Origin: Candidatus Omnitrophica bacterium 4484_213
GTDB taxonomy: Bacteria > Omnitrophota > 4484-213
Direction of reading: 5' to 3'
Assembly: GCA_002085025.1 (NCBI GenBank)
Contig: MZGK01000006.1
Span: forward strand, 1 to 53,867
Length of the DNA: 53,867 nt
Every line of letters starts with the position of its first letter. Position 1 is the stretch's first letter. The notes under the pieces were generated by a model. That model was not told the DNA's origin, ran no database searches, and saw only the letters and a list, made by a program, of their open reading frames with translations. This document shows, piece by piece, positions 549 to 24,036 of this stretch. The translations under genes were made by a program, and so were the position numbers.

Positions 549-3500
549 ATGAGTGAAATAAGAAATATTTTAGGAATAAGATGCTGGCTGGATAGCGGGC
601 AGTTAAGGATAAAAACAAAGAACAAAATTGGAAGGAAATTCAAGAAGTTCCTCCGCAAAACCATCTGCTTAACAATCATCTTCACCTTCTTGGTTGAAAA
701 CATCTCTTTCTCTAATCCCGATATCTTTTCGGGTAGATGGAGAATAGGAAGGCGGTTGCGTCCGCAACCGCCTTCTTCTTTGGCACAGGAAATAAGCAAA
801 GGAATTCAGGTTGACGAAGAAACTACAAATCAGCTTGGCGTAGGCGGGATTGATTTTACCCACATTGACTTCCATAAGCCAGATTCTGATGCTGACTATC
901 GCCAAGGTTTAGTTGGCAAAAGCGCTACTAAAAAGATTCTCAGTCCATCTTTTTTGAACAGTGTAGCCAATGAGCCTATCTATGACTCTTCGGGTAAACT
1001 TATCTATCTTCCCTCTGAAGAAGCCCCTTCCTATATTTCTCCCTTAAGCAACGAAACCATTAGTGAAAATCCTTTAGAGGAAGATAAAGAACCCTCTTTA
1101 TTAGATAGAATTTTTGCTATTGGTGGAGCAATAAAGGATGCTGCCACCGGGGTTTATAACTATTTAACCGGGGGAGTTTCTTCTCTAATTCATCCCGCCC
1201 CCAAAGAAAGCGAAGAAGACATTCTCCAGACGATAGAAACTCATCGTAAATTGGCTGAGGATTCTCTTACTCCCGAAGATAGAATCTTCTTGGGGTTAGA
1301 CTCTCTTCCTCTTGAAGATGAAACCAAGGAAGCCCCCGAGCAGAAGTTTTTGAGCATTCCTTCTTATGATGTTGAGAGTCCATTGGACACTTTTGAACAA
1401 GGCGGCAAAATAATATCCTACTATCTCAGCGACGATGGAAAGAATCAAATAAAGGTTACTGCTGACTTAGCAAGTCGAACTGTTATTGAGGAGCTTTGCA
1501 ATTTAGAGCGTAGCTCTTTATCTGAGGCGGTTATCCAAACCACTTGTATGAGTAAAAAATCAAAGGAGAGTTTTGATGTAGTGCAGACGCTTAAAAATGG
1601 CGAGAGGGTGATATTTTCCCGAAAAGGGAGCTACGATAATAAGACTGGAGAGTTGAGATTTACTGAGGGGACCTATCTAAATAATCAGGGTAAGGCGATT
1701 GGTTGGAAAGGAGATAAGATAGTTTCTATCAACGACGGCAGTAATCTAATAACCTATGATTATCACTCTCAGGAGAGATTTGATATTGGTCGAGGCTCTG
1801 ATGGAAGTTTGCTTATCTATAAAGATGGAGACTTGATTATTCAGAGCAAAGGAAAGGTGGAAGATTACCAGATTGAAATCGGAGAAGGGGAGATAGAGAT
1901 TATTCGCTATTCCCTCTATAAAGATGGAAAGTTTATCCCTCTAAGTAAGCCAATAAGAGAGAAGATTAAGCCAGGAAAGGGGATAAAAATTACTGCAGAA
2001 GGGATAACCTCTATTTATAATCTTGAAGGGCAGTTTCTGGGGATTGATGTTGGAGGAAAACATTTTACTCCAGAAGAGATTGAGAAAATAAACTATCTAA
2101 AGAAGATTGGTTATCTTGAGAGCGTAAACCCCGTTAGAAAAGAATTTTCTAACGGGGTAAATAAAGAATTAAGATTGTCCTCCTCGGCTGAGCAGAGAAT
2201 TAGCGATTATTATGCCGCTTCCGAACTTTACAATATAGTTCAGCGCCCTGAAGAATTTGGCATTAAAAAAATAAAATACGGGGATTTTGGAGAGGATAGC
2301 GATTCGGGTAATCCTTATCTTGATGCAATATTCGCCGGGATATCAGCAGTTACAGAGGTATTTACTAAAACTGCCGGACCAATAAAATCGTTTGATTTAA
2401 TTATTGATAAAAATAATCTTAATAACTATCAATTTAGCCCCAATCCTGACCTCCAGACGGTAAATATTCCTGGGGCAGATATGGAAGTTTCCAAGACGAG
2501 TATTATTCCTTTTTATGGTCTAATTGCTGGTCCGGAAGGAATATACAACTTAAACTTCCGGGAAGAGGAAGCGCTTAACCGAATGTCTGAGCAATCCTTA
2601 CGCTACGGCACAATCTGCGAGACAATTGCGGTTGGTCCTGATGGAAAAGCAATGAGCCCGATGAATTGGGATTTCTGGACTGAGATGCATAAGAATGAAA
2701 GAATAGGCGACCACTACGGTTATGCTGATTTTTCTACTTATTCAGTTGTTGACGGAGTATTTGATCTGGTTCTGCTTGCCGCTCTTGCCGATAATGTTAT
2801 TGGAATTGAAGGAGTAGATGAAGCGGCAGTCTTAGCCGCCAAGGAGGCTTTTCAAGCCGGCAAGATTAGCACTCGCCAATATCTAAGCAACGGGGTTAAG
2901 CCCTTAATTAAAAAGGGAATCAACCAGAGTTTAAAGGAACTTCCTAAGGATATGCTTCTGGGAGGGTCTAGCTTTGTTGCCACTGATAATGTCATTTCTT
3001 GGACCTTAGACGGTCAGCTTCCTTCTTTAGAGCAAAACATTCGCTCCTTTAAATCCGGCGCCGCCCTTCAAGGTGGATTGAGGTTTGTCGGCGTAGGCGG
3101 AGGTACTACCTTGAAGATTGCCGGGGCTACAAACACAGGGGCAGAACTATCATCAAAGATATCAGGTGTAAGCAGTAGATATGCAAGTAGGCCTTTGACT
3201 TATTATGCTCCCGAAGATGCGGCTAAATTAACCAAGATTAGAGCCGGAAGCAAAGCTGCATTAGCCAAGCCATTTATTCACGCAGATAAAGTAGGTAAAG
3301 AGGTTATCCGGGCCGGTCTGCCTCAAGATGCGACAGCGGCAAAGCTCCTTTCTCCTTCCTTAAAAAAGATTGCCGGGTTTACAGCTATTGGTCCTTCCTT
3401 TACTACTTTGAATATCGGCATTGAATCAGCAATAGAAGGGGAATTGACTTGGCCGGGCAAAAAGGATGGTTTATCTGTTCGTCAGGCATACATAGCAGAT

Positions 3501-6500
3501 GCAGCAAACTTTGCCAAGATGGGTACCTGGCTACCTCAAACAATCGGTATTCTCTCTGTTCCGCATACAGTCGCTAAGGAGGGAGGATTTTTAAATGCTC
3601 TTTCCCGAGAGCATAGTTTGAGCAATTTAGTAAGGTCAATAAAAAACCCGGCTAATGCCATAAAGTCATTAGAAGAAAAAGCAATAAGATTTAATACTGA
3701 AAAAGGGCTAAAGATTTCTTTAGAAAAGGGAATAACTGCTCTCGATTCAGCGGCTTTTATCGCCGGCACACTCTCGGGAGTTCAGCACCTTTCTGAATCT
3801 GGTTTGCAGAAGATTGGTTTTAGTGAGGCTCAAGCCGAGTATTTGTCAAACAAGGCTGCTTTTGCTTCGCTCGTATTTATACCTGCTTATTATAATCCCT
3901 CCTTACTCTCTAAACCCCCTTTACCCACGAAAGCAGGGATAGGTAGCCGAATTAAACAGCGGCTGAGCAATTTGCTTAAAGGAAAAAATACTCCTCAAGG
4001 GCTAAAATTTTCTTTTGATTCCGATAGAATAAAAGAAAACCAGAAATTTGGTAAAGAGATAGGCGACAAATTAAATGAACTTATCGCTCTAAAAAACAGC
4101 GGCAGACAAATCTCCGAAGATATTCTAAACAGCAATGAGATTACCGATAAAATTGCCCTGAGTTTCTTGCAAAAGGCAGAGAAAATGGGCAAGAATTTTG
4201 AGGTGCGTCCCGATGACCAGCTCTCAATGACCTATGTTTTAACCAGGGATATTCTAAGAAGTGTGCAGGAGAGCAAGGATTCTCGGCCCTTTGTTGTTAA
4301 GGTGTTTATGAGCAAGGGGAAATCTGCGGCTTATGCCAGTACGGTTGAATCTGCTTTAGATATCGCCCCGGCAAAGATAGTCATTGTTGCCCCTAACATT
4401 GAAATTATTAACCAGATTCTGTCTGAGCCGGCGATGCAATCAGTAGCCCAAAAATACGGGGTTTGTCTAATTAAAGACCCCCAGAGAGATATTCCTAAAG
4501 GGAACAAGGTTTATCTAATGACCGATTCTACCTTTAAGGACTTTGGCTTGACTATGAAGTATAACCTCGCCAATGGAGAATTCCTCAATGGTATTAACAA
4601 GATTATTGTTGACGAGCCGCAGGTTGTTCTTGCCAATCCGGATAAGGTTGTTAGCTCAAGGGAGGGAGTTTTAAGGCGGCTTTCTCCCCAGATGCAGGAA
4701 AGATTAAGCGAGGAATATTCCTTGCGAGAAAAGATATATTCCAAGGTAGAGGAAAACGCCGATGCTATCCGCACCAAAGGAGAAGAGCCTTTTCTCTGTG
4801 AAGTTCCTGAGGAAATAGCGCGCAGTTTGCATAAATCACCAGAGTTCAGAACTCTGAGTTATTCCTTGCTTAAATATCTCTTAGATAGTGCGGCGACCAT
4901 CTATAAATACGGAGATAAAGCACAGTACTATAAATCAGAAGACGGTAAATTCTTTTCTGTTGCCGGCCCAGGCGGGAGAAATGAACCAGGAACAATCTTT
5001 GGCGAGCGGGAGATGTCTATCTTTTTAGGGATAAAAGAGAAATTGGGCAGAGAAAAGGCAATGGAGGATTTTGTCGCCAGTAGTAATCCCTACCGCATCA
5101 GTTTTACGGAAATAATCAGTCGCTTAGGAAAAAATAAATTTGTCGGGGGCAGCGGGACTACAGATAGCATTGATGGCATTCTCAAGGAAATGGGTTTTGA
5201 TGTCCTGGAATTTAGCCGAGAACCGATATTCAAAACAGGACCTACTACGAAGATTATCTTTGCCGAAAAAGATTTACCGACAAGCTTGGGAGAGGTTATT
5301 GAGAAAGCGTTTCGTGAGGGTTATAACAAGGTTGTAATTACGGATAAAAGGGGTCAGATGCTCGAGCGCTATGAACGAGCATTAAAATCTGATGAAGGTA
5401 TTTCTCAAGATACAGAGATAATTTTAATTGAGGGAAGAGAGAAATGGGAAGAAGGGATGGAGTATGCGGCAAGAAGGTGTCAGGAGTATCCTCAGGAAAA
5501 GACCATCGTTCTTGCCCAGGAGCTAGAGACAGGGCTCAATCTTCTGGCTACTTCTAAGAAGGGTGATTACAAAGCGGTAGTTATCAAAACAGATATTTCA
5601 TCCAAGGATATCTTTAAGCAGTTTGCTGCTCGGGTAAAAACTAAAGAGATGCCCGAAATAGGAGGAAGAGTAGAGGGAAAGGTTTATTTTATGATTGACC
5701 CCATAGAGGTAGAGAATCTGGGTTATAACGGTAAGAATGTAGGTTTAAGTGGTCTCACCGATGCCGATAAACTCGCTCTATCTAAAGCGAAAGACCTTGC
5801 TGAAAAGCAAGAGATTATTCTGAATATTGCTGAACGTATTTCCCATCTGGGGAGATTTAGCAAAGGCATAGATATGTTTAGAAAACCTACAAGCCAGATT
5901 CAGCGTGAGACAATAGAAAGACATCTTTCCGAGGTATTAGAAGAGGAACTCGCGGCAATCAAAAAAAATCCCTCTTTAATAACTCATAATAGAATAAAAA
6001 ACATAATTTCTTTGTTTGATAATGAAGACGATGAGGTACGTCAACTTGCCCTGGGGAATCTCTTTGAGATGTTGAGAAGAAGGGATGAAAAAAATTCTTT
6101 GTTGGCAAATCCTGAGGAGGTAGAGGAAATAATCAGAGAGTTTGCGCTCAAGGATGAGGGTTATTATGACCGCGTAAAGGGAATAAAGAGAGAGCCGCAT
6201 TTTGTGGGAACCCCCTTTGAGGTAATAAGAGAGATAGCCAGAGAGGATATTGACAAGCTTACCTTCCCGGTTGTAAAAGAGGTGCTCAAGGTATTTAAGA
6301 AAGATGCTCGTTCATTTATAAAAGAGGCATTTGTTGATGTTTTTGGCAACCTGCCCCCCAGAAAGACAATCGACGATTGGGTTGAGGCGATGGTAGAGCG
6401 AGGCTATAGCCAGGAGGATGTTCTTCGTGGTTTGCGAGGCGAGCGATATCTATATGAAGATGAACTCAATGCTATTGCTAAAGGTGAATCTATTATTAGT

Positions 6501-7670
6501 TCTGATAGTAAGGAATTTTCAGATTGGCTAAAAGAAACATCCTTGGCGACTGGTAAATCTGAAGAGGCAATTCTCGGCGAGATAGAAGAGGCGAAAAAAG
6601 ATTATGCCGAGAGAGAGAAGAGAAAAAAAGAGAAACTTGTTTATCAATTGGGAGAAAATTTAGGCAAATCTTTAAAGCATTTTGGGGAGCAGATTGGAGG
6701 GTCTCCCATAGGGAAGATCCTCTCTCTGGCTATCCCTTTGGGTATAGGTGTTCTCTATCTTTCCTCTCCCCTTAGCGGACTTATAGCCGGAGTTGCTGCC
6801 CAAGATAATCCCCTGGATATGCATAGAGATGATACGAAATTAGCCATAGACAGGGAAGATTTAACATCAACGCTTGCTTCTCCAAAACAAGAAGTTCTAC
6901 TTACCTTGCCCGAAGTAGAGAAGGTAGATATAAATAGCTATACGCCACACGCTACGCGTTATACACCTGATGGAAAAGATTCTGGAGGTGAATTTAGCGA
7001 ACAGATAGCCACTCCCCGCATCATTGGAGAAGACCTTTCTCCCTGGGACGATGATTATGTTGATAGGGAGACAGAGACTGGCTACCTTAATATTTATCTT
7101 GAGGTTGATAATTGGGCTGATTATATTGAACTCTGGCAGGCAGATAATCCCGAGTTTGAAGATACCCAGAGAAAAATAATCCCTGCCGACGAAGACCATC
7201 GCCGAAATATAGAGCTCAAACTCAAAGATTTAACCGAAGACCAGTATGTCAAGTTTGTTGCCTATCGCGCCGGAGCCGCGCCCAGTGAAGAGAGCGAGAT
7301 TATCCGCGTTAAGGTTGTTAAAGAAGATAACCACGGTAATCCAATAGAGCCAGTAGAAGAGCCGATAGGAAAATTAGACACTAAAGATAGTCATTTAGGA
7401 GAATTAACCGTAGAGTTAGAACCCGGCGAGGAGCCCAATATAGTAACTACCTATAAAACTCTTATTGATGCCAAAGGTGAGCCAAAGACAACCAAGATAA
7501 AAGAGGATATTACTGATTATCCCCGTTTCTTTGAGGTGATGATTGTAGATACTGAAGTTGGTGGGATATGGAGAAGAAAAAGGACCTGCCCGATGGTAAG
7601 TATGAGGTCTTTGCCCGCGCCCATTATTATAAAGATTCATCCACCGGCAAACTGCCAAGCGATTGGGTGA
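549..7670 (+). CDS. Giant membrane-anchored protein, upstream reading frame (2,373 codons) with a SecA-like NBD1-PPXD-NBD2 core
   Basis: Uninterrupted 7.1-kb ORF. The N-terminus has a basic stretch then a hydrophobic segment (RKTICLTIIFTFLVENISF). A second hydrophobic span is GKILSLAIPLGIGVLYLSSPLSGLIAGVAA (nt ~6712-6803). nt ~4290-5545 is colinear by eye with the genuine SecA at 38509: SKGKS~GEGKT, KIVIVAPNIEII~[33 protein letters not shown]~[26 protein letters not shown]~AIVDEVD, YYKSEDGKFFSVAGPGGRNEPG~[29 protein letters not shown]~[22 protein letters not shown]~[14 protein letters not shown]. Confidence 0.85.
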   Translation: MSEIRNILGIRCWLDSGQLRIKTKNKIGRKFKKFLRKTICLTIIFTFLVENISFSNPDIFSGRWRIGRRLRPQPPSSLAQEISKGIQVDEETTNQLGVGGIDFTHIDFHKPDSDADYRQGLVGKSATKKILSPSFLNSVANEPIYDSSGKLIYLPSEEAPSYISPLSNETISENPLEEDKEPSLLDRIFAIGGAIKDAATGVYNYLTGGVSSLIHPAPKESEEDILQTIETHRKLAEDSLTPEDRIFLGLDSLPLEDETKEAPEQKFLSIPSYDVESPLDTFEQGGKIISYYLSDDGKNQIKVTADLASRTVIEELCNLERSSLSEAVIQTTCMSKKSKESFDVVQTLKNGERVIFSRKGSYDNKTGELRFTEGTYLNNQGKAIGWKGDKIVSINDGSNLITYDYHSQERFDIGRGSDGSLLIYKDGDLIIQSKGKVEDYQIEIGEGEIEIIRYSLYKDGKFIPLSKPIREKIKPGKGIKITAEGITSIYNLEGQFLGIDVGGKHFTPEEIEKINYLKKIGYLESVNPVRKEFSNGVNKELRLSSSAEQRISDYYAASELYNIVQRPEEFGIKKIKYGDFGEDSDSGNPYLDAIFAGISAVTEVFTKTAGPIKSFDLIIDKNNLNNYQFSPNPDLQTVNIPGADMEVSKTSIIPFYGLIAGPEGIYNLNFREEEALNRMSEQSLRYGTICETIAVGPDGKAMSPMNWDFWTEMHKNERIGDHYGYADFSTYSVVDGVFDLVLLAALADNVIGIEGVDEAAVLAAKEAFQAGKISTRQYLSNGVKPLIKKGINQSLKELPKDMLLGGSSFVATDNVISWTLDGQLPSLEQNIRSFKSGAALQGGLRFVGVGGGTTLKIAGATNTGAELSSKISGVSSRYASRPLTYYAPEDAAKLTKIRAGSKAALAKPFIHADKVGKEVIRAGLPQDATAAKLLSPSLKKIAGFTAIGPSFTTLNIGIESAIEGELTWPGKKDGLSVRQAYIADAANFAKMGTWLPQTIGILSVPHTVAKEGGFLNALSREHSLSNLVRSIKNPANAIKSLEEKAIRFNTEKGLKISLEKGITALDSAAFIAGTLSGVQHLSESGLQKIGFSEAQAEYLSNKAAFASLVFIPAYYNPSLLSKPPLPTKAGIGSRIKQRLSNLLKGKNTPQGLKFSFDSDRIKENQKFGKEIGDKLNELIALKNSGRQISEDILNSNEITDKIALSFLQKAEKMGKNFEVRPDDQLSMTYVLTRDILRSVQESKDSRPFVVKVFMSKGKSAAYASTVESALDIAPAKIVIVAPNIEIINQILSEPAMQSVAQKYGVCLIKDPQRDIPKGNKVYLMTDSTFKDFGLTMKYNLANGEFLNGINKIIVDEPQVVLANPDKVVSSREGVLRRLSPQMQERLSEEYSLREKIYSKVEENADAIRTKGEEPFLCEVPEEIARSLHKSPEFRTLSYSLLKYLLDSAATIYKYGDKAQYYKSEDGKFFSVAGPGGRNEPGTIFGEREMSIFLGIKEKLGREKAMEDFVASSNPYRISFTEIISRLGKNKFVGGSGTTDSIDGILKEMGFDVLEFSREPIFKTGPTTKIIFAEKDLPTSLGEVIEKAFREGYNKVVITDKRGQMLERYERALKSDEGISQDTEIILIEGREKWEEGMEYAARRCQEYPQEKTIVLAQELETGLNLLATSKKGDYKAVVIKTDISSKDIFKQFAARVKTKEMPEIGGRVEGKVYFMIDPIEVENLGYNGKNVGLSGLTDADKLALSKAKDLAEKQEIILNIAERISHLGRFSKGIDMFRKPTSQIQRETIERHLSEVLEEELAAIKKNPSLITHNRIKNIISLFDNEDDEVRQLALGNLFEMLRRRDEKNSLLANPEEVEEIIREFALKDEGYYDRVKGIKREPHFVGTPFEVIREIAREDIDKLTFPVVKEVLKVFKKDARSFIKEAFVDVFGNLPPRKTIDDWVEAMVERGYSQEDVLRGLRGERYLYEDELNAIAKGESIISSDSKEFSDWLKETSLATGKSEEAILGEIEEAKKDYAEREKRKKEKLVYQLGENLGKSLKHFGEQIGGSPIGKILSLAIPLGIGVLYLSSPLSGLIAGVAAQDNPLDMHRDDTKLAIDREDLTSTLASPKQEVLLTLPEVEKVDINSYTPHATRYTPDGKDSGGEFSEQIATPRIIGEDLSPWDDDYVDRETETGYLNIYLEVDNWADYIELWQADNPEFEDTQRKIIPADEDHRRNIELKLKDLTEDQYVKFVAYRAGAAPSEESEIIRVKVVKEDNHGNPIEPVEEPIGKLDTKDSHLGELTVELEPGEEPNIVTTYKTLIDAKGEPKTTKIKEDITDYPRFFEVMIVDTEVGGIWRRKRTCPMVSMRSLPAPIIIKIHPPANCQAIG
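2128..2158. repeat. Minimal palindromic element (termini only) inside the giant gene
   Basis: Perfect 14-bp inverted repeat ACCCCGTTAGAAAA (2128-2141) / TTTTCTAACGGGGT (2145-2158) with a 3-nt loop. It is read in frame as NPVRKEFSNGV. Confidence 0.8.
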
Positions 7671-10600
7671 GTTTAGGCGAGGTTGAGATTGAAAGAGACG
7701 ATAGATTAAGATATTTTGCTCCTCCGCCGGAGATGGATATTCAAGAGACCAAAAACGGCTGGGGAGTGTTGAGCTGGAGTCTTCCCCCAGGAGCAAAAGG
7801 AGTTGTTCTAGAAGTAGCGGAGAAATCAAGGGATTTATCCTCGCATCCTAATGCGGATAACGGGAAAGATACTCAGCGATATTTTATTCCCCGAGATTTT
7901 ACATCGCTTTTAACCAATCAAGAGGGTGTATATCATATTGCTACTGTATATGAGAAGCCCGACCCCGATAGCCAGGTAACCGGCAAGAAAATTTTGACCT
8001 ATAGCCAATGGGGCGGTTTGCATTCAGAACACAACTATTTCCAGAAGAGAGAAGGAGAGGAAACTATCTCTATAGAGGCAATCACAGAAAGTATTCCGCA
8101 GAGAAAAGGGATTATCATTGACAACAATCAGGCAAAAATATTCATAAAAGATAAACAAGATGAGTTAAAATTCCTCGCTGATTATGAATTAGATGATAAT
8201 TTTGAGATTAAAACCACAAGAGAAGAACCCTTAGATAAAGGCCCGGTTCATATCAAGCATTTTACAGATTATGGAGAAAATGAATTTGACACGGAGCAGA
8301 TTGGCAATAATATTTATCATTATGAGAAGGGTTTGAAAATGTCTGATGGCACGCCCTTCTGGACAGAGGTAACTTCAGCAATTGATAAGGATAAAGTAAT
8401 TAAAACCGCCGAGGCGATTATAGATAAAGACAGCGGCGAGATAATTGGGCGAAGAGTTAAGGATTTAATCAGCGGAATCACCGAGATTCAGGATTATTAT
8501 GGAGGAGAGTGGTTCACAACAGAGAAAACCGTAGCTAATGGAGAGACATTTAATTATAAATATAAGGATTATGTAGGCAGGAGATTTCTTATCTGGGATA
8601 ATGAGGACGGAATAGAGAAAGAACATAGCTATGAGTTTTATCCTCTGGAGAAAGAAACAGAGGTTGAAGAGATAACTAAACAAGATTGGCCTGGCGGGCC
8701 CGAGCAAAAGGGCTGGAAGTCTAATGAAAAAGCACTTTTAAAAGTAAAAACTCGGACTATCTCTTTTAATGATGGACGGCCCGATGTAGTTAAGCATTAT
8801 GATATTGATGAGAATTTACTAATAGTTGAAAACAGCGATGAGACAATTAGTATTTATGATTTATTTAATTTCCCAGGTTTAAATCAACCGACAATGATTG
8901 CAGATGCGCAAACCGGCGAGATTAGACAAAAGATCAATTATGAACTTGATGAGATGAATGTGATTACTAAGATAACTAAAGAACATCTTTTTGAAGGGCA
9001 AACCGAGATGATTGAAGTTGACCCGGTTACTAATTGGAAGACAATTACAACGAAAGACAATGATGGGGTTATTTGGATAAGCACTCCGTCAACAGAAGAT
9101 AGCCAATATATTGAAACAAAGGTGAACCTGTGCAGTGGCACTGAAGAGAAGTTATTCTTCAATTATTATGGAGGACATATTATTGGAGGAGCGGAGTTTG
9201 ATTGGAATGGAGATGAAATAAAACACTGGGAAATTGATGGAAATAAAAAGATAGTAGAATACCCCCGAATTGGCGAGAGAGAAGAAATAACCCTTGCCTG
9301 GGAATATAACGGTCCAGCTACAGAAGGACATTGTTTTGATAAATTAGGAGAAAAATCTAACTGGGAGGTTAGCGAGAGTGGATATACCAAGACAAAAAAC
9401 TTTTTACGTCTTGGCCAAGCAGAAGAAGTAAAACTTGCTTATCGCTATGGGCCAGAGATAAAAGGCGCAAGGTCGGATGATTTAGGAGAGATATTTTCCT
9501 GGAAAATTGGAGTAGGCCAAGATGGAAAATGGCATAATCTCAAGGAATTTGTTAGAACCGGCGAGAGAGAGGATGCTGTTCTTTCCCATTTTAGTGGCTT
9601 GCCCGAGAAGATAGATTTTATCGGCTCAGACGGAGAAATAAAAAGGGCTACAAAATTTAGAGACGATAGTGACGATTGGCTATCCCAAGAAATAGAGGGC
9701 AAGAAAAAGCCTTTAGCAATCACCGAGAAATTTGATGGCCGGAGTAAAGAGACGGTCTATGGTTATCTGAGCAGTTCCAGGATAGGCCCGAAGATAGTTG
9801 AAACAGAATTTGATAATAATGGCGATTTATTCTCTGTTCTAAATCTTCAGGGAGATGGCCGATGGTTAATTAAGGAGGAAGGTGAGGATAAAGGTAAATA
9901 CTATGGAAAGAAGTATTTTGTCCAGGAAGGAAAGAATGAGGATGGAGAATATAGAGAATATGAAGAGATAGTTTTTGCTTCTCAGGATGGAACAAAAGAA
10001 AAAATAACCCATTATAAGTGGAGTGGAGAAGAGCAAGAATTTGTAGAGATATTTAGCAAGGAGGCAGTGGATGAAAATGGTAACTGGTTGATAGACGAGA
10101 ATACAGGAAAGCATTATACACAGATAGATTTTGCCAATGGAAGGAAGCAGTTTAATGTCCACCCTTGGATAGGCAGTGAAGTAAACGAATTTAGCAAGAT
10201 GCTTGCTCCTGACCGCCAGACAACTCTTTGGGACGAACAAACTTATTTTGATGAAAAGGATAGGAAGTGGTATCAAGACAAAAATATTTACGATAGAGGA
10301 AAATTAATAAAAGAAGAGAAGAATATTTTACTTTGGCACAATGGCCCATTGAGCGACGGCACAATTGTTGAGCATCGCTATGACGGAGATGTTTATTTTG
10401 ATGTTAAGCGAGATTACATAGAGAATTACAGCAAAATGACCGAGACGATTAGGAGAGAAGACAATGGAGACAGAGACGCTATTAAATGGGAAAGGATTTT
10501 AGGAAATTGGGAGAAGATTGAAATTGACTATTCAGATGGCACAGGTGAGAAGAACTATTTTGACGATAACGGCATAAAGATAAAGAAGGAATTTAGCCGC

Positions 10601-11089
10601 AAAGAGTTTGGGGGGATAAATAACTATGTAGAAGAATTCGTTTATCCAGGAGATAAAATTAAAGGAACGGTCTATGGAATGCATTCTGCCAAGGGTAAGT
10701 TTGTCGGCGAGAGGACTTATGATAACTTGATTAATGAAGGAAAGTTGATACATAGCATAAATATTTTAGATTTAGGTAGAGAGCAGAGAGTTGAAGTTAA
10801 GTATCAGTCCGACGGCAGTATTTTGCATTACCGAGATTATAAAGGAGTTAATCTTCCCTTATTAGGATATACAGATGAGTTATTTAGAAATACAAACATA
10901 GATTTTGTGGACGAATTTTATTGGCAGCACAATAAACTTTATACCCTTGACTTAAATAGCAATAAAAAAGAAACATTCCACTTTTTAAGAAATGATTATT
11001 ATCTATCAGAAATTTCCCGAGTTGATTATCAACTGAACGATAATTCGCTAAGAATAAGCGCTGAGTTCTTATTGGTGTATTTGCTTTGA
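7568..11089 (+). CDS. Giant protein, downstream reading frame (1,173 codons): Fn3-like segment then beta-rich repeats; probably the C-terminal continuation of 549..7670
   Basis: Overlaps the upstream frame by 103 nt in the -1 frame. The first residues (KKDLPDGKYEVFARAHYYKDSSTGKLPSDWVSLGEVEI) look like the end of an Ig/Fn3-like domain. GWGVLSWSLPPGAKGVVLEVAE looks like the start of another. Later ~40-aa repeats are visible (IGEREEITLAWEYNGP... / LGQAEEVKLAYRYGP... / TGEREDAVLSHFSGLP...). Confidence 0.85.
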   Translation: MEKKKDLPDGKYEVFARAHYYKDSSTGKLPSDWVSLGEVEIERDDRLRYFAPPPEMDIQETKNGWGVLSWSLPPGAKGVVLEVAEKSRDLSSHPNADNGKDTQRYFIPRDFTSLLTNQEGVYHIATVYEKPDPDSQVTGKKILTYSQWGGLHSEHNYFQKREGEETISIEAITESIPQRKGIIIDNNQAKIFIKDKQDELKFLADYELDDNFEIKTTREEPLDKGPVHIKHFTDYGENEFDTEQIGNNIYHYEKGLKMSDGTPFWTEVTSAIDKDKVIKTAEAIIDKDSGEIIGRRVKDLISGITEIQDYYGGEWFTTEKTVANGETFNYKYKDYVGRRFLIWDNEDGIEKEHSYEFYPLEKETEVEEITKQDWPGGPEQKGWKSNEKALLKVKTRTISFNDGRPDVVKHYDIDENLLIVENSDETISIYDLFNFPGLNQPTMIADAQTGEIRQKINYELDEMNVITKITKEHLFEGQTEMIEVDPVTNWKTITTKDNDGVIWISTPSTEDSQYIETKVNLCSGTEEKLFFNYYGGHIIGGAEFDWNGDEIKHWEIDGNKKIVEYPRIGEREEITLAWEYNGPATEGHCFDKLGEKSNWEVSESGYTKTKNFLRLGQAEEVKLAYRYGPEIKGARSDDLGEIFSWKIGVGQDGKWHNLKEFVRTGEREDAVLSHFSGLPEKIDFIGSDGEIKRATKFRDDSDDWLSQEIEGKKKPLAITEKFDGRSKETVYGYLSSSRIGPKIVETEFDNNGDLFSVLNLQGDGRWLIKEEGEDKGKYYGKKYFVQEGKNEDGEYREYEEIVFASQDGTKEKITHYKWSGEEQEFVEIFSKEAVDENGNWLIDENTGKHYTQIDFANGRKQFNVHPWIGSEVNEFSKMLAPDRQTTLWDEQTYFDEKDRKWYQDKNIYDRGKLIKEEKNILLWHNGPLSDGTIVEHRYDGDVYFDVKRDYIENYSKMTETIRREDNGDRDAIKWERILGNWEKIEIDYSDGTGEKNYFDDNGIKIKKEFSRKEFGGINNYVEEFVYPGDKIKGTVYGMHSAKGKFVGERTYDNLINEGKLIHSINILDLGREQRVEVKYQSDGSILHYRDYKGVNLPLLGYTDELFRNTNIDFVDEFYWQHNKLYTLDLNSNKKETFHFLRNDYYLSEISRVDYQLNDNSLRISAEFLLVYLL

Positions 11090-12120
11090 GCCCAACCTGG
11101 GGGACTTGGGCTATTGGGGGCGTTACAACTTTCTTTTTTACTACCCTCTTGGTTCGCAATCTTAGCAGTGATTTCGTTCCTCACTTTGGCTGGAACCCTC
11201 TAAAATGGGAATGGTTTAAGAAAGGAATATTCCATCCCCAGAAACTCAGCCGCTCTATACTCAGTTGTAATATAGGTGGGCCTATCTTTAACCTGTTGCT
11301 TATTACTTCGGCCATTCCTTTAGCAGCTTATATTCTTTCAGCTTTAGCACTTCCGAGCGAAGTATGGTTAGCGGTTCTCTTTGCTATCCTCTGGCCTATT
11401 AAATCGCTATACAAAAGCACAATGAGAAAACTCCAGCCTTTTCCAGAAGAGGCCCAAAAGGCAGAGTGGGGAAAGATGGCTATTTCTGAAGCAGTGCTTC
11501 TTCCAATAGTTTATTTCGTTCTTTCTATGGACCCTTTAGGTTATGTCTTCTTTACGCGAGTTTTTTGCCAGGGGTTAGGATTTGGCATAGATGTAAGATA
11601 CTTTCTCTTTGGTAGTATTGAGATTACGCGCGGGTTTAGAATGGGAGTGCCCGGCAGGGTAACCATTAACGGGAAGAGGATTAATCCTAAGGAGGCGTGG
11701 GAGAGATGGGCTATAGAAAATAAAATTGAGGATGCAAAGATTGTTCCTGCCAATATTCGAGAAGAGATATTGAAAGGGTGTCTAAGCTGCGGGAGTTGTC
11801 CAATGTCCAATAAGGGAAATAGCGGGCACTGCGGGGCGTGTTTTGGGGCTTCTGAACGTTGGCATAGCACAATAAAAGACATCAAGATGGGTTCTGTCCA
11901 TAAATTTATATGTGATAATAAGAAATCAGACCTTTCCCAATATAAATATCTTTCTCCCCAGCATATTCAGTATGAGTTTTTGGAGGATTTGCTTGCAAAA
12001 GCAGGAGTAGAAGCCCCCGGACTATTTCTTGCGCAACTATTTCTTGAAAGAAATGGTAAAGATAATAATGGAAATACCGATATCTGGCAGGCGATAGAGG
12101 CGAGAACAAAGAAACCATAG
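11086..12120 (+). CDS. Polytopic membrane protein with a Cys-rich C-terminal domain, translationally coupled to the giant gene
   Basis: The TTG start overlaps the giant-gene TGA (TTGA at 11086-11089). There are about 5 hydrophobic spans (e.g. GGPIFNLLLITSAIPLAAYILSALAL, VWLAVLFAILWPI, AVLLPIVYFVLSM). The C-terminal part contains CLSCGSCPMSNKGNSGHCGAC. No family was recognised. Confidence 0.7.
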   Translation: MSPTWGTWAIGGVTTFFFTTLLVRNLSSDFVPHFGWNPLKWEWFKKGIFHPQKLSRSILSCNIGGPIFNLLLITSAIPLAAYILSALALPSEVWLAVLFAILWPIKSLYKSTMRKLQPFPEEAQKAEWGKMAISEAVLLPIVYFVLSMDPLGYVFFTRVFCQGLGFGIDVRYFLFGSIEITRGFRMGVPGRVTINGKRINPKEAWERWAIENKIEDAKIVPANIREEILKGCLSCGSCPMSNKGNSGHCGACFGASERWHSTIKDIKMGSVHKFICDNKKSDLSQYKYLSPQHIQYEFLEDLLAKAGVEAPGLFLAQLFLERNGKDNNGNTDIWQAIEARTKKP

Positions 12121-12292
12121 CAAAGGCCTTTCCAATTAACCTCTCAACCATATTCAGTTTTCATTGGTGACCTTCCAATTTTTTCAATATCATATAGAAC
12201 TTTTGCATTTTTCTCTAAACTTTTGTTTAATTAAGGGAATTTTTGCATTCCTCGCTCTCGTGATTTTTTATTAACGCTAAAATCTGCGTCTC

Positions 12293-12380
12293 GGCAGGGC
12301 AAAATCAAACTTGACCACCTCAGACCCGAAACGGTTCGGGTCTTCGGCGGTCTTCGGACATGATTTTGCTAGGACCTGCC
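12293..12380. repeat. Nested-hairpin intergenic element
   Basis: Outer pairing is GGCAGG+GCAAAATCA (12293-12307) with TGATTTTGC (12361-12369) and CCTGCC (12375-12380). The inner perfect hairpin is GACCCGAA-acgg-TTCGGGTC (12323-12342). Confidence 0.7.
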
Positions 12381-12394
12381 TCAACTTGATTTTA

Positions 12395-13560: not shown

Positions 13561-14277
13561 ATGAAGAATTTTTATCGGGATTGGATAAAAAACAGTGACC
13601 TGATTGGATTTCAGGTCATAGTCAAAGAGACAGAACTTTTTGTTAAGGCAGAGCGAGACTTATCTGTTGAGGCAACCAACTCAATTGTGGAATTTAGAGG
13701 TCAAATAGAAGAATATATTGCCAAAGATTCCGAATTTAAAACTGCACTTAAGCCCTATAGCGTTAGTGATAGAGCTCCCTTGATAGTTAAGGAGATGGCT
13801 AAAGCTTCATCTTCGGTTGGGGTTGGCCCTTTTGCCTCTGTAGCCGGTGCTATAGCAGAATATGTAGGGAAAAATCTTCTCAAACATTCTCGGCAGATTA
13901 TTGTAGAAAACGGAGGGGATATATTTATCAAGAGTGCAAAAAATAGGGTTGTGGGGATATACGCCGGTTTATCTTCCTTTAACAGGAGAGTGGGGTTGGA
14001 GATAAAAGCTGAGGAGACTCCCCTGGGTATCTGCACTTCTTCGGGAACAATAGGGCATTCTTTAAGCTTCGGGAAGGCGGATGCGGTAGTAGTGCTTTCC
14101 AAATCTACTCTTTTAGCCGACGCATCTGCTACTTGCATCGGTAACCTCATTAAGAAAAAGACCGATATCCCTCAAGGGATAAAGTTTGCTCAAAAGATAA
14201 ACGGGCTTAAAGGAGTAGTTATCATCAAAGATGACAAAATGGGAATTTGGGGTGAGGTAAAGATTTGCCAAATTTAA
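13561..14277 (+). CDS. UPF0280 family (ApbE-like fold) protein
   Basis: PFASVAGAIAEYVG, IVENGGDIF and TSSGTIGHSLSFGKADAVVV resemble UPF0280 proteins. Assignment is from memory of the family pattern only. Confidence 0.5.
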   Translation: MKNFYRDWIKNSDLIGFQVIVKETELFVKAERDLSVEATNSIVEFRGQIEEYIAKDSEFKTALKPYSVSDRAPLIVKEMAKASSSVGVGPFASVAGAIAEYVGKNLLKHSRQIIVENGGDIFIKSAKNRVVGIYAGLSSFNRRVGLEIKAEETPLGICTSSGTIGHSLSFGKADAVVVLSKSTLLADASATCIGNLIKKKTDIPQGIKFAQKINGLKGVVIIKDDKMGIWGEVKICQI

Positions 14278-16333: not shown

Positions 16334-16772
16334 ATTAAGGAAAATTCTAAAGTCTTACAATGGCCAAAGAGAGGGGCTTTTGCCTTGTCTCCATTTTATC
16401 CAGAAAGAGCGCGGATATTTATCTGAAGAGGACGCCCTATTTTTGGCTAAAGAATTGAATTTGCCGCCGGTGGAGGTTTATAGTGTAGCGAGTTTCTACT
16501 CTATGTTTACTCTCAAAGAAAGAGGTAAGTATATTATTCGTGTTTGCGCATCTTTGCCCTGTTATCTTAAGGGTTCAAAAGAGATTTTGCAAGCATTAAC
16601 TGAGGAATTAAATATCAGCGTAGGCCAGACCACAGCTGATAAAAAATTCACCATAGAGGCAGTCTCTTGTTTAGGGGCTTGCGATAAAGCACCGGCGATG
16701 ATGATCAATGAAGAAATTTATACAAATTTAACCCCGGCAGAAGCAAAGGAAATAATTCGTCAGTTAAAATGA
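16323..16772 (+). CDS. hydC: [FeFe]-hydrogenase NuoE-like 2Fe-2S subunit
   Basis: Thioredoxin-like 2Fe-2S pattern: RVCASLPCYLKGS ... SCLGACDKAPAMMIN. Overlaps the rex end by 11 nt. Confidence 0.88.
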   Translation: MKDKLRKILKSYNGQREGLLPCLHFIQKERGYLSEEDALFLAKELNLPPVEVYSVASFYSMFTLKERGKYIIRVCASLPCYLKGSKEILQALTEELNISVGQTTADKKFTIEAVSCLGACDKAPAMMINEEIYTNLTPAEAKEIIRQLK

Positions 16773-18034
16773 AAATAGTCTTAAAAAATATTGAAAAGCA
16801 AGGTTATAATGGCGATTTAGAAAGTTATCTTAAACAAGACGGCTATCAGGCCTTAAAGAAGGCACTGAGTCTATCTTCCGAAGAAATAATCAGCGAGGTT
16901 AGATCTTCCAAACTTGTTGGCCGAGGGGGAGCGGCATTTCCTACGGGACTGAAGTGGGAATCGGCTCAAAAGAGCAAAGGGTTTCCTAAGTATGTAGTTT
17001 GCAATGCCGATGAAGGCGAGCCGGGGACATTTAAAGACCGGCTCATTTTAGAAAAAGATCCGCACCTAATAATAGAGGCGATGGCTATTTGCGGATTCAG
17101 TATAGGGGCAGGACAAGGTTTTGTTTATCTGCGAGGGGAATATTTTAAGGGCTACGAAATCTTAAAAAAGGCAGTTCAGGAAGCAGAGGAAAAGAATTTT
17201 TTAGGCAAAAATATTCTTGGGTCTAAATTTTCCTTTAAGATTAATCTTTACAGAGGAGCCGGGGCGTATGTATGCGGCGAGGAAACCGCACTTTTGGATT
17301 CATTGGAAGGCAGGAAAGGACAATCTCGCGTAAAGCCCCCTTTCCCTACATTTGTCGGGTTTAAGACTAAACCAACCATTTTAAATAATGTGGAGACATT
17401 TGCCAATATCCCGGCGATAATTTTAAAGGGCGGGGAATGGTTCTCTCAAATAGGTTGCCCTGATTCTCCAGGGACAAAATTATACTGCCTTTCCGGGGAT
17501 ATAAATAAACCCGGGGTCTATGAACTCCCCACAAGTATCGCCTTAAAAGAATTGCTCGAAAGATATGGTGGAGGTATCAGGGGAAAACTTAAAGCTGTTT
17601 TACCGGGTGGAGTTTCCAGCAGTCTATTAACTGATAAGGAGTTAGATGTAGCCCTGAACTATCCCAGCGTCCAGAAAGCCGGCAGTATGTTGGGTTCAGG
17701 AGCAGTGATTGTAATAAATAATAGTCATTGTATAGTAGATTTAGCAAAAAGATGCGCAGAGTTTTTTGATTATGAATCCTGCGGAAAATGCACTCCCTGT
17801 AGAGAAGGCACAAAAAGAGCAAAGGAGATTCTTGTAAATATTACCAAAGGAGAAGGTAATTTAAGCGATTTGGAACTTTTGAGGGAATTGCAGGAAATTT
17901 TATATGATACATCCCGCTGCGGTTTAGGCCAAGCCGCACTGAATGCTGTCCGTTCAGCTATTGAGAAGTTTCCGGTTGAATTTGAGGAACATATTTCAAA
18001 AAAGAAATGTAGATTGGGGATTTGTCCAATATGA
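16769..18034 (+). CDS. hydB: [FeFe]-hydrogenase NuoF-like flavoprotein subunit (NAD(P)H/FMN binding)
   Basis: GRGGAAFPTGLKWE, CNADEGEPGTFKDR, YICGEETALL-like (YVCGEETALLDSLEG), ESCGKCTPCREG. ATGA overlap with hydC. Confidence 0.9.
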   Translation: MKIVLKNIEKQGYNGDLESYLKQDGYQALKKALSLSSEEIISEVRSSKLVGRGGAAFPTGLKWESAQKSKGFPKYVVCNADEGEPGTFKDRLILEKDPHLIIEAMAICGFSIGAGQGFVYLRGEYFKGYEILKKAVQEAEEKNFLGKNILGSKFSFKINLYRGAGAYVCGEETALLDSLEGRKGQSRVKPPFPTFVGFKTKPTILNNVETFANIPAIILKGGEWFSQIGCPDSPGTKLYCLSGDINKPGVYELPTSIALKELLERYGGGIRGKLKAVLPGGVSSSLLTDKELDVALNYPSVQKAGSMLGSGAVIVINNSHCIVDLAKRCAEFFDYESCGKCTPCREGTKRAKEILVNITKGEGNLSDLELLRELQEILYDTSRCGLGQAALNAVRSAIEKFPVEFEEHISKKKCRLGICPI

Positions 18035-19815
18035 TTACTTTAACTATTGATAATCAAAAAGTAGAGGTTCCTGAAGAGACAACTATCTTTGAAGCCGCCA
18101 AAAAGGTGGATATTAACATCCCCCATCTTTGCTATCACGAGGCATTATCTATTTATGGGGCTTGCCGGGTTTGCGTGGTAGAGATAGAAAAAAGACCGCG
18201 CTTGGAGCCTTCTTGCGCTACCTTGGTAGAGGAGGGAATGGTTGTCTGGACAAATACGGCTCGTGTCCGGCGGGCACGCAGGATGCTCGTGGAATTGCTT
18301 TTAGCCAATCACCCTGAGGATTGCTTTACCTGCGAAAGGAATCAGGCCTGCGAATTAAGAAAACTCGCTTATGATTTAGGAATAAGAGAATTAAGATTTA
18401 AAAAAGGGAGGAAATATCATTACGAGCAGGATATTTCTTCTCCGGCTATAATAAGAGACCCCAATAAATGCATTCAGTGTGGCCGGTGCATAAGGGTGTG
18501 TTCGGAAATACAGTCAGTGGGGGTAATTGATTTTGTCAATCGTGGTGGGAAAACCCAGGTTTTAACTTTTTTCAATAAAGGGTTAAACAATGTAGAATGC
18601 ACTACCTGTGGCCAGTGCATCCTTGCCTGTCCTACAGGCGCATTGCGCGAGAAGACTGTAGTGGACGAGGTCTGGGAGGCAATCTCTGACCCTAAAAAAT
18701 TTGTTGTGGTTCAGGCCGCCCCAGCAGTAAGAGCGGCTATCGGAGAGGAATTTGCTATGCCTGCAGGGAGCTTGGTTACCGGTAAAATGGCTGCCGCTTT
18801 GCGAAGGTTAGGTTTTGATAAGGTATTTGATACCCAATTCGCTGCAGACCTGACGATTATGGAAGAAGCACATGAATTGATAGAAAGGATAGAAAATAAG
18901 GGTGTGCTTCCGATTATTACCTCTTGCTCTCCCGGCTGGATAAAATATATTGAACATTTCTTTCCCAAGTGCTTGGAGCATATTTCCAGTTGCAAATCTC
19001 CCCAGCAGATGTTTGGGGCGATAGCCAAAACATACTACGCTAAGAAGATAGGGGTTAAGCCCAAAGATATATATGTGGTTTCTATTATGCCTTGCACCGC
19101 AAAGAAGTTCGAGGCTCAGCGCCCGGAAATGAGAGATTCAGGTGTCCAGGATGTAGATGCGGTGCTGACTACAAGAGAGGCAGCCCGAATGATTAAAGAG
19201 GCAGGAGTTGATTTTATTAATTTAGAAGATGAAGATTTTGATGAGCCATTAGGTATTTCAACAGGGGCGGCCGTAATATTCGGAACTACCGGCGGAGTAA
19301 TGGAGGCGGCCCTGCGAACAGCGTATGAGGTAGTGGCAGGGAAGACTTTAGAACGAGTAGAATTTGAACAGGTGCGCGGGATGCAAGGAATAAAGCAGGC
19401 AGAAATAAACTTAGAGGGATTAAACCCTATTAGAAGCAACTCCGACGCTACCTCGGGGTGTCCGGCGGGAACTCCTAACGGGGTAAATTTAAAAGTGGCA
19501 GTTGCCCATGGTTTATCTAATGCCCGAATTCTATTAGAAGAAATTCAAAAAGGAATTTCACCTTATCACTTTATAGAAATTATGGCTTGTCCAGGAGGTT
19601 GCTTGGGCGGAGGGGGTCAACCTATGCCTACCAATGAAGAGATAAGGAAGAAAAGGGCAGCCAGTTTATATTTAGAGGATAGAAACAAACCGATAAGGAA
19701 ATCTCACCAAAATCCGGCCATTATTGCCCTGTATGAAGAATTTTTAGGTAAACCCTTGAGCGAAAAGTCTCGTCGTCTTTTACATACAACCTATACTAAA
19801 AGAGAAAGATATTGA
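18031..19815 (+). CDS. hydA: [FeFe]-hydrogenase catalytic subunit
   Basis: N-terminal 2Fe-2S and 4Fe-4S motifs (CRVCVVE, HPEDCFTCERNQACELR, CIQCGRCIRVC, CTTCGQCILACP). H-cluster motifs TSCSPGW, MPCTAKKFE, EIMACPGGCLGGGGQP. The ATG at 18031 overlaps the hydB TGA; the track start at 18022 is a TTG. Confidence 0.93.
   Translation: MITLTIDNQKVEVPEETTIFEAAKKVDINIPHLCYHEALSIYGACRVCVVEIEKRPRLEPSCATLVEEGMVVWTNTARVRRARRMLVELLLANHPEDCFTCERNQACELRKLAYDLGIRELRFKKGRKYHYEQDISSPAIIRDPNKCIQCGRCIRVCSEIQSVGVIDFVNRGGKTQVLTFFNKGLNNVECTTCGQCILACPTGALREKTVVDEVWEAISDPKKFVVVQAAPAVRAAIGEEFAMPAGSLVTGKMAAALRRLGFDKVFDTQFAADLTIMEEAHELIERIENKGVLPIITSCSPGWIKYIEHFFPKCLEHISSCKSPQQMFGAIAKTYYAKKIGVKPKDIYVVSIMPCTAKKFEAQRPEMRDSGVQDVDAVLTTREAARMIKEAGVDFINLEDEDFDEPLGISTGAAVIFGTTGGVMEAALRTAYEVVAGKTLERVEFEQVRGMQGIKQAEINLEGLNPIRSNSDATSGCPAGTPNGVNLKVAVAHGLSNARILLEEIQKGISPYHFIEIMACPGGCLGGGGQPMPTNEEIRKKRAASLYLEDRNKPIRKSHQNPAIIALYEEFLGKPLSEKSRRLLHTTYTKRERY
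19424..19484. repeat. Palindromic element copy inside hydA
   Basis: ACCCTATTAGAAG (19424-19436) ... ACTCCTAACGGGGT (19471-19484). Read in frame as NPIRSNSDATSGCPAGTPNGV between the GIKQAEI and VAVAHG segments. Confidence 0.75.
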
Positions 19816-19817
19816 CG

Positions 19818-20543
19818 ATGCTAAAAATAGAAAATTTGACTCTTGAAAAAGATAGCAGACAAATATTGGAGAAGGTAAATTTAACTGTTGGAAAAGGTGA
19901 AATCTATGCTCTTTTAGGCCGCAACGGCACAGGGAAGACAACCCTTGCTTATGCTATTATGGGCTGTAATGATTATCAACCTAATGAAGGGAAAATTATC
20001 TTTGGGGGAAAAGAGATTACCCACCTATCCATATCTAAAAGGGCAAAGTTAGGGATTACTCTTGCCTGGCAGAAACCAGCCGGTTTTGAAGGATTGACTG
20101 TTCGAGAGTATCTAAGGTGCAAGAATAAGAATGCAAATGTTTATAGTTTGCTTTCAGTGGTTGGGCTATCTTCTGATTATCTAAACAGGACGGTAGACGA
20201 TAAGCTTAGCGGGGGTGAGAGAAAGAGGATTGAATTGGCATCGGTTATGGCAGTGAAACCAAAACTGGCAATATTGGATGAAATAGATTCGGGGATAGAT
20301 GCCCCTTCTCTTCCCTTTATCAGAAAGACCATTCAGAAAATGAGAGCCGATGGCGTAACCGTTTTTTTAATCAGCCATAGTGAAGCCACCTTAAATATAT
20401 CCGATAGGGCATCTTTGATTGGTGCCGGTCGGATATTAAAAACCGCCAGCCCAAAAGTAGTGAAGGAATTTTTTGTAAAACATTGTAAGAAATGCAGTCA
20501 TTTATATAAAATAAATTGGGAAAGGATTAAATATGGTTTCTAA
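19818..20543 (+). CDS. sufC: Fe-S cluster assembly ATPase SufC-like
   Basis: Walker A GRNGTGKTTL, signature LSGGERKR, Walker B LAILDEIDSG. The ATG at 19818 is preferred over the TTG at 19812. Confidence 0.85.
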   Translation: MLKIENLTLEKDSRQILEKVNLTVGKGEIYALLGRNGTGKTTLAYAIMGCNDYQPNEGKIIFGGKEITHLSISKRAKLGITLAWQKPAGFEGLTVREYLRCKNKNANVYSLLSVVGLSSDYLNRTVDDKLSGGERKRIELASVMAVKPKLAILDEIDSGIDAPSLPFIRKTIQKMRADGVTVFLISHSEATLNISDRASLIGAGRILKTASPKVVKEFFVKHCKKCSHLYKINWERIKYGF

Positions 20544-24023: not shown

Positions 24024-24036
24024 GCAAGGATAGACG

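Follow-up and report, generated by a model that had tools for sequence, protein, structure and literature searches.

Can a protein of several thousand residues carry, within its own chain, the motor that moves it across the membrane? The question is raised by a locus at 549-12120 on the + strand of contig MZGK01000006.1 (Candidatus Omnitrophica bacterium 4484_213, GenBank assembly GCA_002085025.1). The stretch of DNA analysed, 53,867 nucleotides (nt) in all, is referred to here as the window. An initial annotation, made from the DNA letters by eye, had described continuous coding capacity at this locus, with a SecA-like motor embedded in a giant membrane protein and a coupled membrane partner encoded downstream. 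The coding capacity and its layout were found in three open reading frames (ORFs):

549-7670, + strand: ORF1, 2,373 amino acids (aa)
7568-11089, + strand: ORF2, 1,173 aa, in a frame different from that of ORF1
11086-12120, + strand: ORF3, 344 aa, with a TTG start that overlaps the TGA stop of ORF2 (11086-11089)

On balance, we favour the reading that these ORFs are a single Omnitrophota gene for a 4,021-aa envelope protein, in which a very remote relative of SecA would serve as the ATPase. The protein would then belong with the long and giant membrane proteins of the Omnitrophota that bear divergent SecA-like domains. The features of the ATPase module, which were read from A1, an alignment of six sequences that hold the module, are as follows:

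4236-5708, + strand: putative divergent SecA-like SF2 ATPase module, ORF1 aa ~1230-1720 (motifs, Foldseek, hhalign)
4305-4325, + strand: motif I, FMSKGKS
4602-4622, + strand: motif II, IIVDEPQ
4635-5129, + strand: ~165 aa inserted between motifs II and III, where SecA has its preprotein cross-linking domain (PPXD), with the core YYKSEDGKFFSVAGPGGRNEPGTIFGEREMSIFLGIKEK from 4926
5145-5162, + strand: motif III, GGSGTT
5520-5540, + strand: motif V, ELETGLN
~5619-5642, + strand: motif VI, QFAAR...

The module is a two-lobed SF2 ATPase. Motifs I, II, III and VI are kept across the six A1 sequences, with the consensus GxGK for motif I, (V/I)DE for motif II, S(G/A)T for motif III and Q...R...R..G for motif VI (invariant Q512, R516, R528 and G531); the two RecA-like lobes and the motifs that characterize SF2 helicase-like NTPases are all present. 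Among Pfam profiles, the window segment matches DEAD (PF00270) at E 5.4e-4, with 20.2 bits and thus below the cutoff of 26, and ResIII (PF04851) at a sub-threshold E of 4e-3; in one relative (P0003), ResIII just passes, at E 7e-5 and 23.2 bits against a cutoff of 22.5. The structure prediction that the initial annotation had proposed as a check points the same way. A Foldseek search of the PDB with the AlphaFold2 (AF2) model gave 36 matches at E <= 1e-3, nearly all of them SF2 helicases or translocases (with SF2 helicases at E ~1e-6) and one of them a dynein motor domain. The model used as query was of low confidence, its lobes were arbitrarily oriented, and the TM-scores were 0.17-0.32. The model also shows a long helix straight after the second lobe, which is not evidence for a helical scaffold.

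The window provides its own standard for comparison, since a genuine SecA gene starts at 38509, as the initial annotation had noted; the SecA encoded at 38509-41084 matches PF07517, PF01043, PF21090, PF07516 and SEC-C in Pfam, and TIGR03714 and TIGR04397 in NCBIfam. Walker A, Walker B and motif III-like blocks were located in the module where they had first been read by eye, with SecA-like spacing (~100 and ~180 aa). Over A1 as a whole, motifs I and II are separated by ~100 aa and motifs II and III by ~180-220 aa, and an insertion of 165-220 aa lies between the latter two in all members. In DEAD-box proteins the distance between motifs II and III is ~30 aa; SecA has the long pattern, as in A1.

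The likeness to SecA appears at the level of profile-profile comparison. With hhalign, A1 aligned with a 3-sequence alignment of SecA NBD1 and PPXD over 321 collinear columns, with a score of 39.7 (P 3.4e-4); the reversed control scored 13.6, and 100 column shuffles gave 16.0 ± 2.8, with a maximum of 25.9. Against the single SecA of the window, the score was 33.3 (P 0.0031), collinear over 533 columns. The insertion alone aligned with SecA 220-372, the PPXD, at a score of 27.5 (P 0.0038; shuffles 13.8 ± 2.4, maximum 20.8), although it has no PF01043 match and an AF2 confidence below 50. This indicates that the strongest SecA signal resides in the SecA-specific insertion. The insertion, which is also the best-conserved stretch in comparison with the giant relatives P0004 and P0005, aligns with DY..kD.qvvivDe.tGr.mpGrr. 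of SecA over two helices with a beta-hairpin, YYKSEDGKFFSV, and then a loop, AGPGGRNEPGTIFGE, between them. As a DEAD-box control, human eIF4A1 (its sequence confirmed against the PDB at 902 bits) scored 15.6 with A1 (P 0.45) and aligned out of register, and hhalign found no similarity between the insertion and eIF4A1. SecA itself scored ~27.8 against eIF4A1, which serves as a baseline for true remote SF2 relatives. These comparisons suggest, with modest strength, that the module, including its PPXD-like insertion, is closer to SecA than to a canonical DEAD-box helicase.

Several results weigh against this assignment and against the protein as we read it. The Pfam profiles SecA_DEAD (PF07517), SecA_PP_bind (PF01043), P-loop_SecA and SecA_SW did not match the 611-aa segment or five relatives at E <= 10; NCBIfam gave no SecA match for the module or its relatives, and ORFs 1-3 as a whole had no Pfam or NCBIfam match at E <= 1. 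The initial annotation had named the lack of a significant SecA profile match as grounds for refuting its claim, and formally that is the outcome, since no SecA profile was significant. PDB sequence searches with the single sequence and with the A1 profile returned no matches, BLASTP of the segment against the SecA of the window gave a best E of 1.3, and when an A1 hidden Markov model (HMM) was run against 76 window ORFs, SecA was the best non-self match, but at E 0.37. The block-by-block alignment with SecA that had been described by eye was therefore recovered by profile-profile comparison, and not by BLASTP, Pfam, NCBIfam or PDB sequence searches. Even in hhalign, the NBD1 core alone scored a weak 18.1 (P 0.09), and the C-terminal part of A1 scored a weak 22.0 against SecA NBD2 (P 0.026; shuffles 13.5 ± 2.4). 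The hhalign probabilities were 10-38 %, the profiles being shallow (6 and 1-3 sequences), and eIF4A1 was the one SF2 control other than SecA. In the motifs, the arginine of SecA motif V is not conserved in A1, and the residue after the Walker A lysine is Q, E or M instead of S/T in several relatives. The AF2 model, built from a six-sequence alignment, was weak (pLDDT 56, pTM 0.40, insertion below 50), and SecA was absent from the best 50 PDB matches in Foldseek, which were nucleic-acid helicases instead. At the level of the whole protein, the topology is predicted from hydropathy, and the export function discussed below is a proposal.

A SecA motor described as complete is not what was found. 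The scaffold/wing (PF07516, HSD/HWD) and the zinc motif (PF02810) have no match in the three ORFs, both being present in the SecA of the window, and at the motif V position in A1 only G483 and N485 are invariant (AEGTNI, GEGSNI, AEGENI, ETGLNL, GPGVNA).

The alternative that best survives these results is that the module is a generic SF2 helicase or translocase unconnected with export, acting either as a mover of nucleic acid or as a mechanochemical or regulatory switch. Its likeness to SecA would then reflect the common RecA-like cores together with an unrelated insertion. DEAD and ResIII are indeed the sole sequence-profile matches, the SecA profiles are never significant, and the best Foldseek matches are DinG, MDA5, RapA, DDX, XPD and Hel308 rather than SecA, although the Foldseek ranking comes from the low-confidence query noted above. 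However, the profile-profile signal peaks in the insertion, in register with the SecA PPXD, the DEAD-box control shows no similarity, and the module is always found in membrane-anchored or signal-bearing proteins. We consider this alternative unlikely, while granting it more weight than the other rivals discussed below. The SF2 ATPase is probably a remote derivative of SecA. If so, SecA-like motors can drift so far that Pfam no longer detects them, and their frequency is probably underestimated.

The module belongs to a very small family. An exhaustive phmmer search over 1.84 billion cluster representatives returned six proteins only (P0001-P0006), and a search of genome contigs matched only the contig that encodes P0001. 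P0004 (at least 4,119 aa) and P0005 (4,871 aa) are giant multi-span proteins, which at 4-5 thousand aa are likewise dark to Pfam, whereas P0002, P0003 and P0006 are short, with 600-900 aa; only the ATPase module is common to these relatives. In P0004 and P0005, hydrophobic spans precede the module and another span follows after a linker of 400-700 aa. In the three short proteins, the N-terminal module precedes a twin-arginine (Tat)-like RRxFLK signal in mid-chain, after which comes a C-terminal domain of ~200-250 aa that these proteins share; the signal of P0006, TRRDFLKTAGKAAALVGAASMG...AKA, passes TIGR01409. All members therefore have the order ATPase, signal-like hydrophobic segment, further domain. 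PADLOC, Pfam and NCBIfam searches of the ORFs, the segment and the relatives gave nothing past the weak DEAD/ResIII matches and the Tat signal, and tblastn of P0002 against plasmids gave no matches. Word-index searches with the A1 profile and ORF3 also returned no matches; they missed P0001, which holds both, and are uninformative.

The surroundings of these relatives vary. Loci of the short proteins (L003 1552-4215, L007 1009-3291) lie on short contigs, next to ParE-toxin-like and AAA_14/DUF4143 genes. On L002 (GCA_041650935.1 contig JBAZKH010000011.1; 12795-18452 region), the gene for P0004 extends past the contig start, and directly after it a gene was called with a product of 9,259 aa, which makes this a cluster of very long genes. 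Two small PilZ-domain genes follow P0005 (L006, 22643-23315 region), hinting at regulation linked to cyclic di-GMP nearby.

Whether the giant protein is encoded as one piece was answered by comparison with two related contigs. The ORF2 frame is open only from 15 nt upstream of the ORF2 ATG, and the final 34 codons of ORF1 appear to be out of frame. P0001, the sole close homologue of ORF1 in an index of 5.8 billion proteins, comes from a metagenome-assembled genome (Candidatus Omnitrophota bacterium isolate AUK068); it has 3,876 aa, is 90 % identical, and spans ORF1, ORF2 and ORF3 without interruption. Its contig (L001) has 95 % nt identity to the window and a single ORF of at least 3,876 aa. 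A second contig, from a Joint Genome Institute metagenome (L005, Ga0164311_10002461), is 99.5-99.9 % identical to window 4304-12394, and its single ORF extends past the 5' end of the contig. Both contigs carry three stretches that the window lacks:

549-12120, + strand: a single gene, as read from this comparison, whose product is a multi-pass envelope protein of 4,021 aa; split into three ORFs by missing stretches
5844/5845, + strand: breakpoint A, lacking 135 nt (45 codons, in frame) that both L005 and L001 contain
7556/7557, + strand: breakpoint B, where 103 nt are absent, producing the frame change between ORF1 and ORF2
11066/11067, + strand: breakpoint C, where 256 nt are absent, with loss of two membrane spans and an apparent TTGA stop/start junction

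When window 549-4303 was joined to L005, the reconstruction measured 12,063 nt, or 4,021 codons, with no internal stop. Gaps B (103 nt) and C (256 nt) are both frame-shifting, junction C reads through as ...IGVFALSPTW... inside one ORF in both relatives, and the ORF2 ATG is an in-frame internal Met codon in L005. The ratio of nonsynonymous to synonymous substitution rates (dN/dS, window versus L001) is 0.21-0.39 in every segment, with the lowest values, 0.21 and 0.22, in the ATPase and the C-terminal domain respectively, which indicates that all segments are under purifying selection. At the level of sequence, this comparison demonstrates that 549-12120 is a single gene and that its three-ORF layout is due to the missing stretches. 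The intact ORFs of L001 and L005 accordingly encode what the initial annotation had proposed, a giant membrane protein in which an ATPase is embedded; the frame change and the TTGA coupling that the annotation also described are products of the missing 103 and 256 nt.

The gaps could alternatively be real, that is, three recent deletions that leave this genome with a decaying pseudogene or with three separately expressed products. Breakpoints A-C are clean, without flanking repeats or homopolymers, and ORF2 and ORF3 happen to begin at an ATG and a TTG, which speaks for this reading. However, two other genes of the window are broken in the same manner. The secA gene is split into overlapping ORFs at 38509-40491 (660 aa) and 40455-41084 (209 aa), which match positions 1-78 and then 87-199 of the SecA_SW profile; positions 79-86 are absent, a frame-breaking loss of ~25 nt. 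A gatA-like amidase gene is split into ORFs at 34507-35373 (288 aa) and 35274-35957 (227 aa) that overlap by 100 nt, and these match positions 1-244 and then 274-445 of the Amidase profile, with 245-273 absent. Both genes are presumably essential. Four of the five window gaps break the frame, two of these being the ones in secA and gatA, as expected of unselected lesions. Because secA and gatA are broken in the same way as the giant gene, a sequence artefact is the likelier cause, and the intactness of a contig 99.5-99.9 % identical, in which the ORF2 ATG is internal, argues in the same direction. The gaps are thus likely to be artefacts of the window sequence, with very recent deletions as the alternative, and a gene really broken in this genome is improbable. 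A two-frame giant with a separate, translationally coupled 344-aa Cys-rich membrane partner, as the TTGA overlap (11086-11089) and the division into ORFs in the window would have it, is hardly credible, since both relatives read through and the junction falls within a region of membrane spans that is lost from the window; the supposed partner is, in both, the C-terminal domain of the same polypeptide.

Two other causes of the frame breaks were considered and rejected. Programmed frameshifting at 7556 or 11066 does not apply, as the relatives carry 103 and 256 extra nt there and no slippery site is present; repeat-mediated slippage or assembler collapse does not apply, as no repeats are found at the breakpoints. 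As the window holds gaps that break frames, readings such as "split gene" or "translational coupling" drawn from it need comparison with related sequences. The window does contain a programmed +1 frameshift site, in prfB, the gene for release factor 2 (37415-38516; AGG GGG TAT CTT TGA A, preceded by a short upstream stretch). In contrast to the other frame breaks of the window, this one is genuine and well known.

With the gene read as one, the domain layout of the protein can be proposed from hydropathy and the positive-inside rule:

549-704, + strand: K/R-rich N-terminus, then a hydrophobic signal/anchor at aa 34-52 (TICLTIIFTFLV...SFS followed by N), from a hydropathy scan
705-2744, + strand: proposed ecto-domain 1, aa 53-732 (~680 aa), placed by hydropathy topology
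2745-2801, + strand: candidate second membrane crossing, aa 733-751, VVDGVFDLVLLAALADNVI, with a Kyte-Doolittle value of 1.82 and a K/R-rich C-flank
5709-6716, + strand: E/K-rich helical linker from the ATPase to the next span, from composition and the long helix after lobe 2 in the AF2 model
6717-6800, + strand: membrane span or internal signal-like segment, ILSLAIPLGIGVLYLSSPLSGLIAGVAA followed by QDNP, from hydropathy, with a K-rich N-flank and an acidic C-flank
6801-11066, + strand: proposed ecto-domain 2, beta-rich, ~1,475 aa in the intact protein, placed by hydropathy topology
11086-11622, + strand: remaining five of seven spans of the C-terminal membrane bundle, from hydropathy of ORF3, P0001 and the reconstruction
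11623-12120, + strand: proposed cytoplasmic C-terminal tail (~165 aa), with CLSCGSCP...HCGAC at 11779-11841, read from the sequence

The two hydrophobic anchors of the initial annotation, at the N-terminus and at 6717-6800, were recovered by hydropathy, as were the ~5 spans of ORF3, and its CxxCxxC...HCxxC motif was found at 11779-11841. The second crossing is uncertain, as aa 733-751 hold three acidic residues; between this span and the ATPase lies a Gly/Ala-rich region. The span at 6717-6800 corresponds to aa 2057-2084 of ORF1 and aa 2102-2130 of the reconstruction and ends in an AxA-like ...GVAA followed by Q; its predicted orientation follows the positive-inside rule. The seven-span bundle occupies aa 3607-3855 of the reconstruction. 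Ecto-domain 1 has no Pfam or NCBIfam match, ecto-domain 2 has no Pfam match and no repeats by self-BLAST, and the Cys-rich tail (CxxCxxCP...HCxxC) has no family match in Pfam or NCBIfam; the AF2 model of the seven-span and Cys-rich domain was unusable (pLDDT 33). An Fn3-like segment that had been read by eye has no Fn3 profile match, and the ~40-aa repeats said to fill the last ~1,400 codons shrink to three repeats of ~34 aa at 9269-9658, for which a seed HMM found no further copies. With this topology, the ATPase, within a block of ~1,350 aa, and the Cys-rich tail would be cytoplasmic, and both large ecto-domains would lie outside.

In order along the chain, the protein would comprise a signal/anchor, ecto-domain 1, a crossing, the cytoplasmic ATPase block, a span, ecto-domain 2, the seven-span bundle and the cytoplasmic Cys-rich tail. 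The cytoplasmic motor would thus be synthesized ahead of the signal-like span that follows it. Acting in cis, it may drive or gate the translocation of the protein's own large extracytoplasmic segment, with either SecYEG or the membrane spans of the protein itself as the route. Of the mechanisms that we can put forward, self-export in cis is the most coherent, and it is a tentative one. A broader and more doubtful possibility is that the family forms a distinct, sparse lineage of cis-acting self-export ATPases, in which a SecA-derived motor stands directly upstream of an internal signal and a cargo domain; the signal would be a Sec-type span in the proteins of 4-5 thousand aa and a twin-arginine signal in those of 600-900 aa. 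In that case, each molecule would bear its own single-use translocation motor, an export principle new to characterized secretion systems.

The architecture, which the initial annotation did not recognize as a described one, has in fact been published for giant Omnitrophota proteins (bioRxiv 10.1101/2023.11.21.568195; 10.64898/2026.06.07.730766). Divergent SecA DEAD and preprotein-binding domains are reported in most giant proteins of this phylum (>30,000 aa, from genes >90 kb) (West-Roberts et al. 2023, bioRxiv 10.1101/2023.11.21.568195). These domains have no scaffold/wing, adjoin membrane spans and group separately from the normal SecA that their genomes also encode, and they were proposed to export the giant protein itself (bioRxiv 10.1101/2023.11.21.568195). 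A PF07517 architecture cluster of 20 proteins was also reported among Omnitrophota proteins of at least 10,000 aa (bioRxiv 10.64898/2026.06.07.730766), and giant multi-span ORFs are common across the phylum and poorly understood (Seymour et al., PMC10066038).

Like these giants, the window protein comes from the Omnitrophota, is multi-pass and, by its predicted topology, mostly extracytoplasmic, and has an embedded, fast-evolving SecA-like ATPase that lies by membrane spans and lacks scaffold/wing, in a genome with a canonical SecA. All of these traits hold, with the SecA-likeness seen in profile-profile comparison only. Unlike the published giants, it has 4,021 aa, below both size thresholds (>30,000 and >=10,000 aa); its module is missed by the Pfam SecA models, and the link to the published domains is by description; and it has a C-terminal seven-span bundle with a Cys-rich tail, and no enzyme, dockerin or peptidase domains. 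A SecA-like motor in a giant Omnitrophota protein, with self-export, is therefore essentially the published hypothesis. What sets the present case apart is that the protein is small, that Pfam does not see its module, that it ends in a seven-span/Cys-rich C-terminal domain, and that its tiny family includes short Tat-signal proteins.

Other known systems resemble the module in part. It shares with housekeeping SecA the order and spacing of Walker A, Walker B, motif III and motif VI, the insertion that aligns with the PPXD, and ~530 collinear columns; it differs in having no significant sequence-profile match, no helical scaffold/wing or SEC-C zinc motif, a replaced arginine in motif V (ETGLN for GRGTD), and a covalent embedding in a membrane protein. 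The accessory Sec system (SecA2/SecY2) of Gram-positive bacteria serves one dedicated large adhesin with a separate motor, clearly of the SecA family, and a channel of its own. The concept of a SecA paralogue serving one very large surface protein is common to both, whereas the motor in the window is fused to its presumed cargo and far more divergent. With generic SF2 helicases (DEAD PF00270, ResIII PF04851), the module has in common the two RecA-like lobes and motifs I, II, III and VI; the ~165-220 aa insertion between motifs II and III, the lack of detectable profile similarity to eIF4A1 and the membrane- or signal-bearing context set it apart. The Omnitrophota insert and export enormous envelope proteins by means still to be explained, and the carriers described so far, at 10-150 thousand aa, are hard to study. 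A protein of 4 thousand aa and its relatives of 600-900 aa would be tractable models for a SecA-derived motor in cis.

The genes around the locus are housekeeping in character. A TonB C-terminal domain is encoded upstream, and then come genes for a cysteine synthase-like protein, MnmA, Rex, an [FeFe]-hydrogenase with maturases, and Suf proteins. A promoter and terminator scan gave a result no different from shuffles. The region 16769-25374 encodes a Nuo51-like NADH-binding flavoprotein, the [FeFe]-hydrogenase large subunit, SufC/SufBD-like proteins, two radical-SAM proteins (HydE/HydG-like) and HydF, and this hydrogenase and maturation cluster looks complete. ORFs of 603, 315 and 238 aa (25817-27628, 28986-29933 and 13561-14277) are without a Pfam match at E <= 1e-4. 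The window also has a strand bias: 38 of the 43 ORFs of at least 150 aa lie on the + strand, with positive GC skew. From ~48.7 kb the called genes are on the - strand and the GC skew is negative, with the maximum of the cumulative skew at ~49 kb; this switch near 48000-49000 could be related to replication or transcription.

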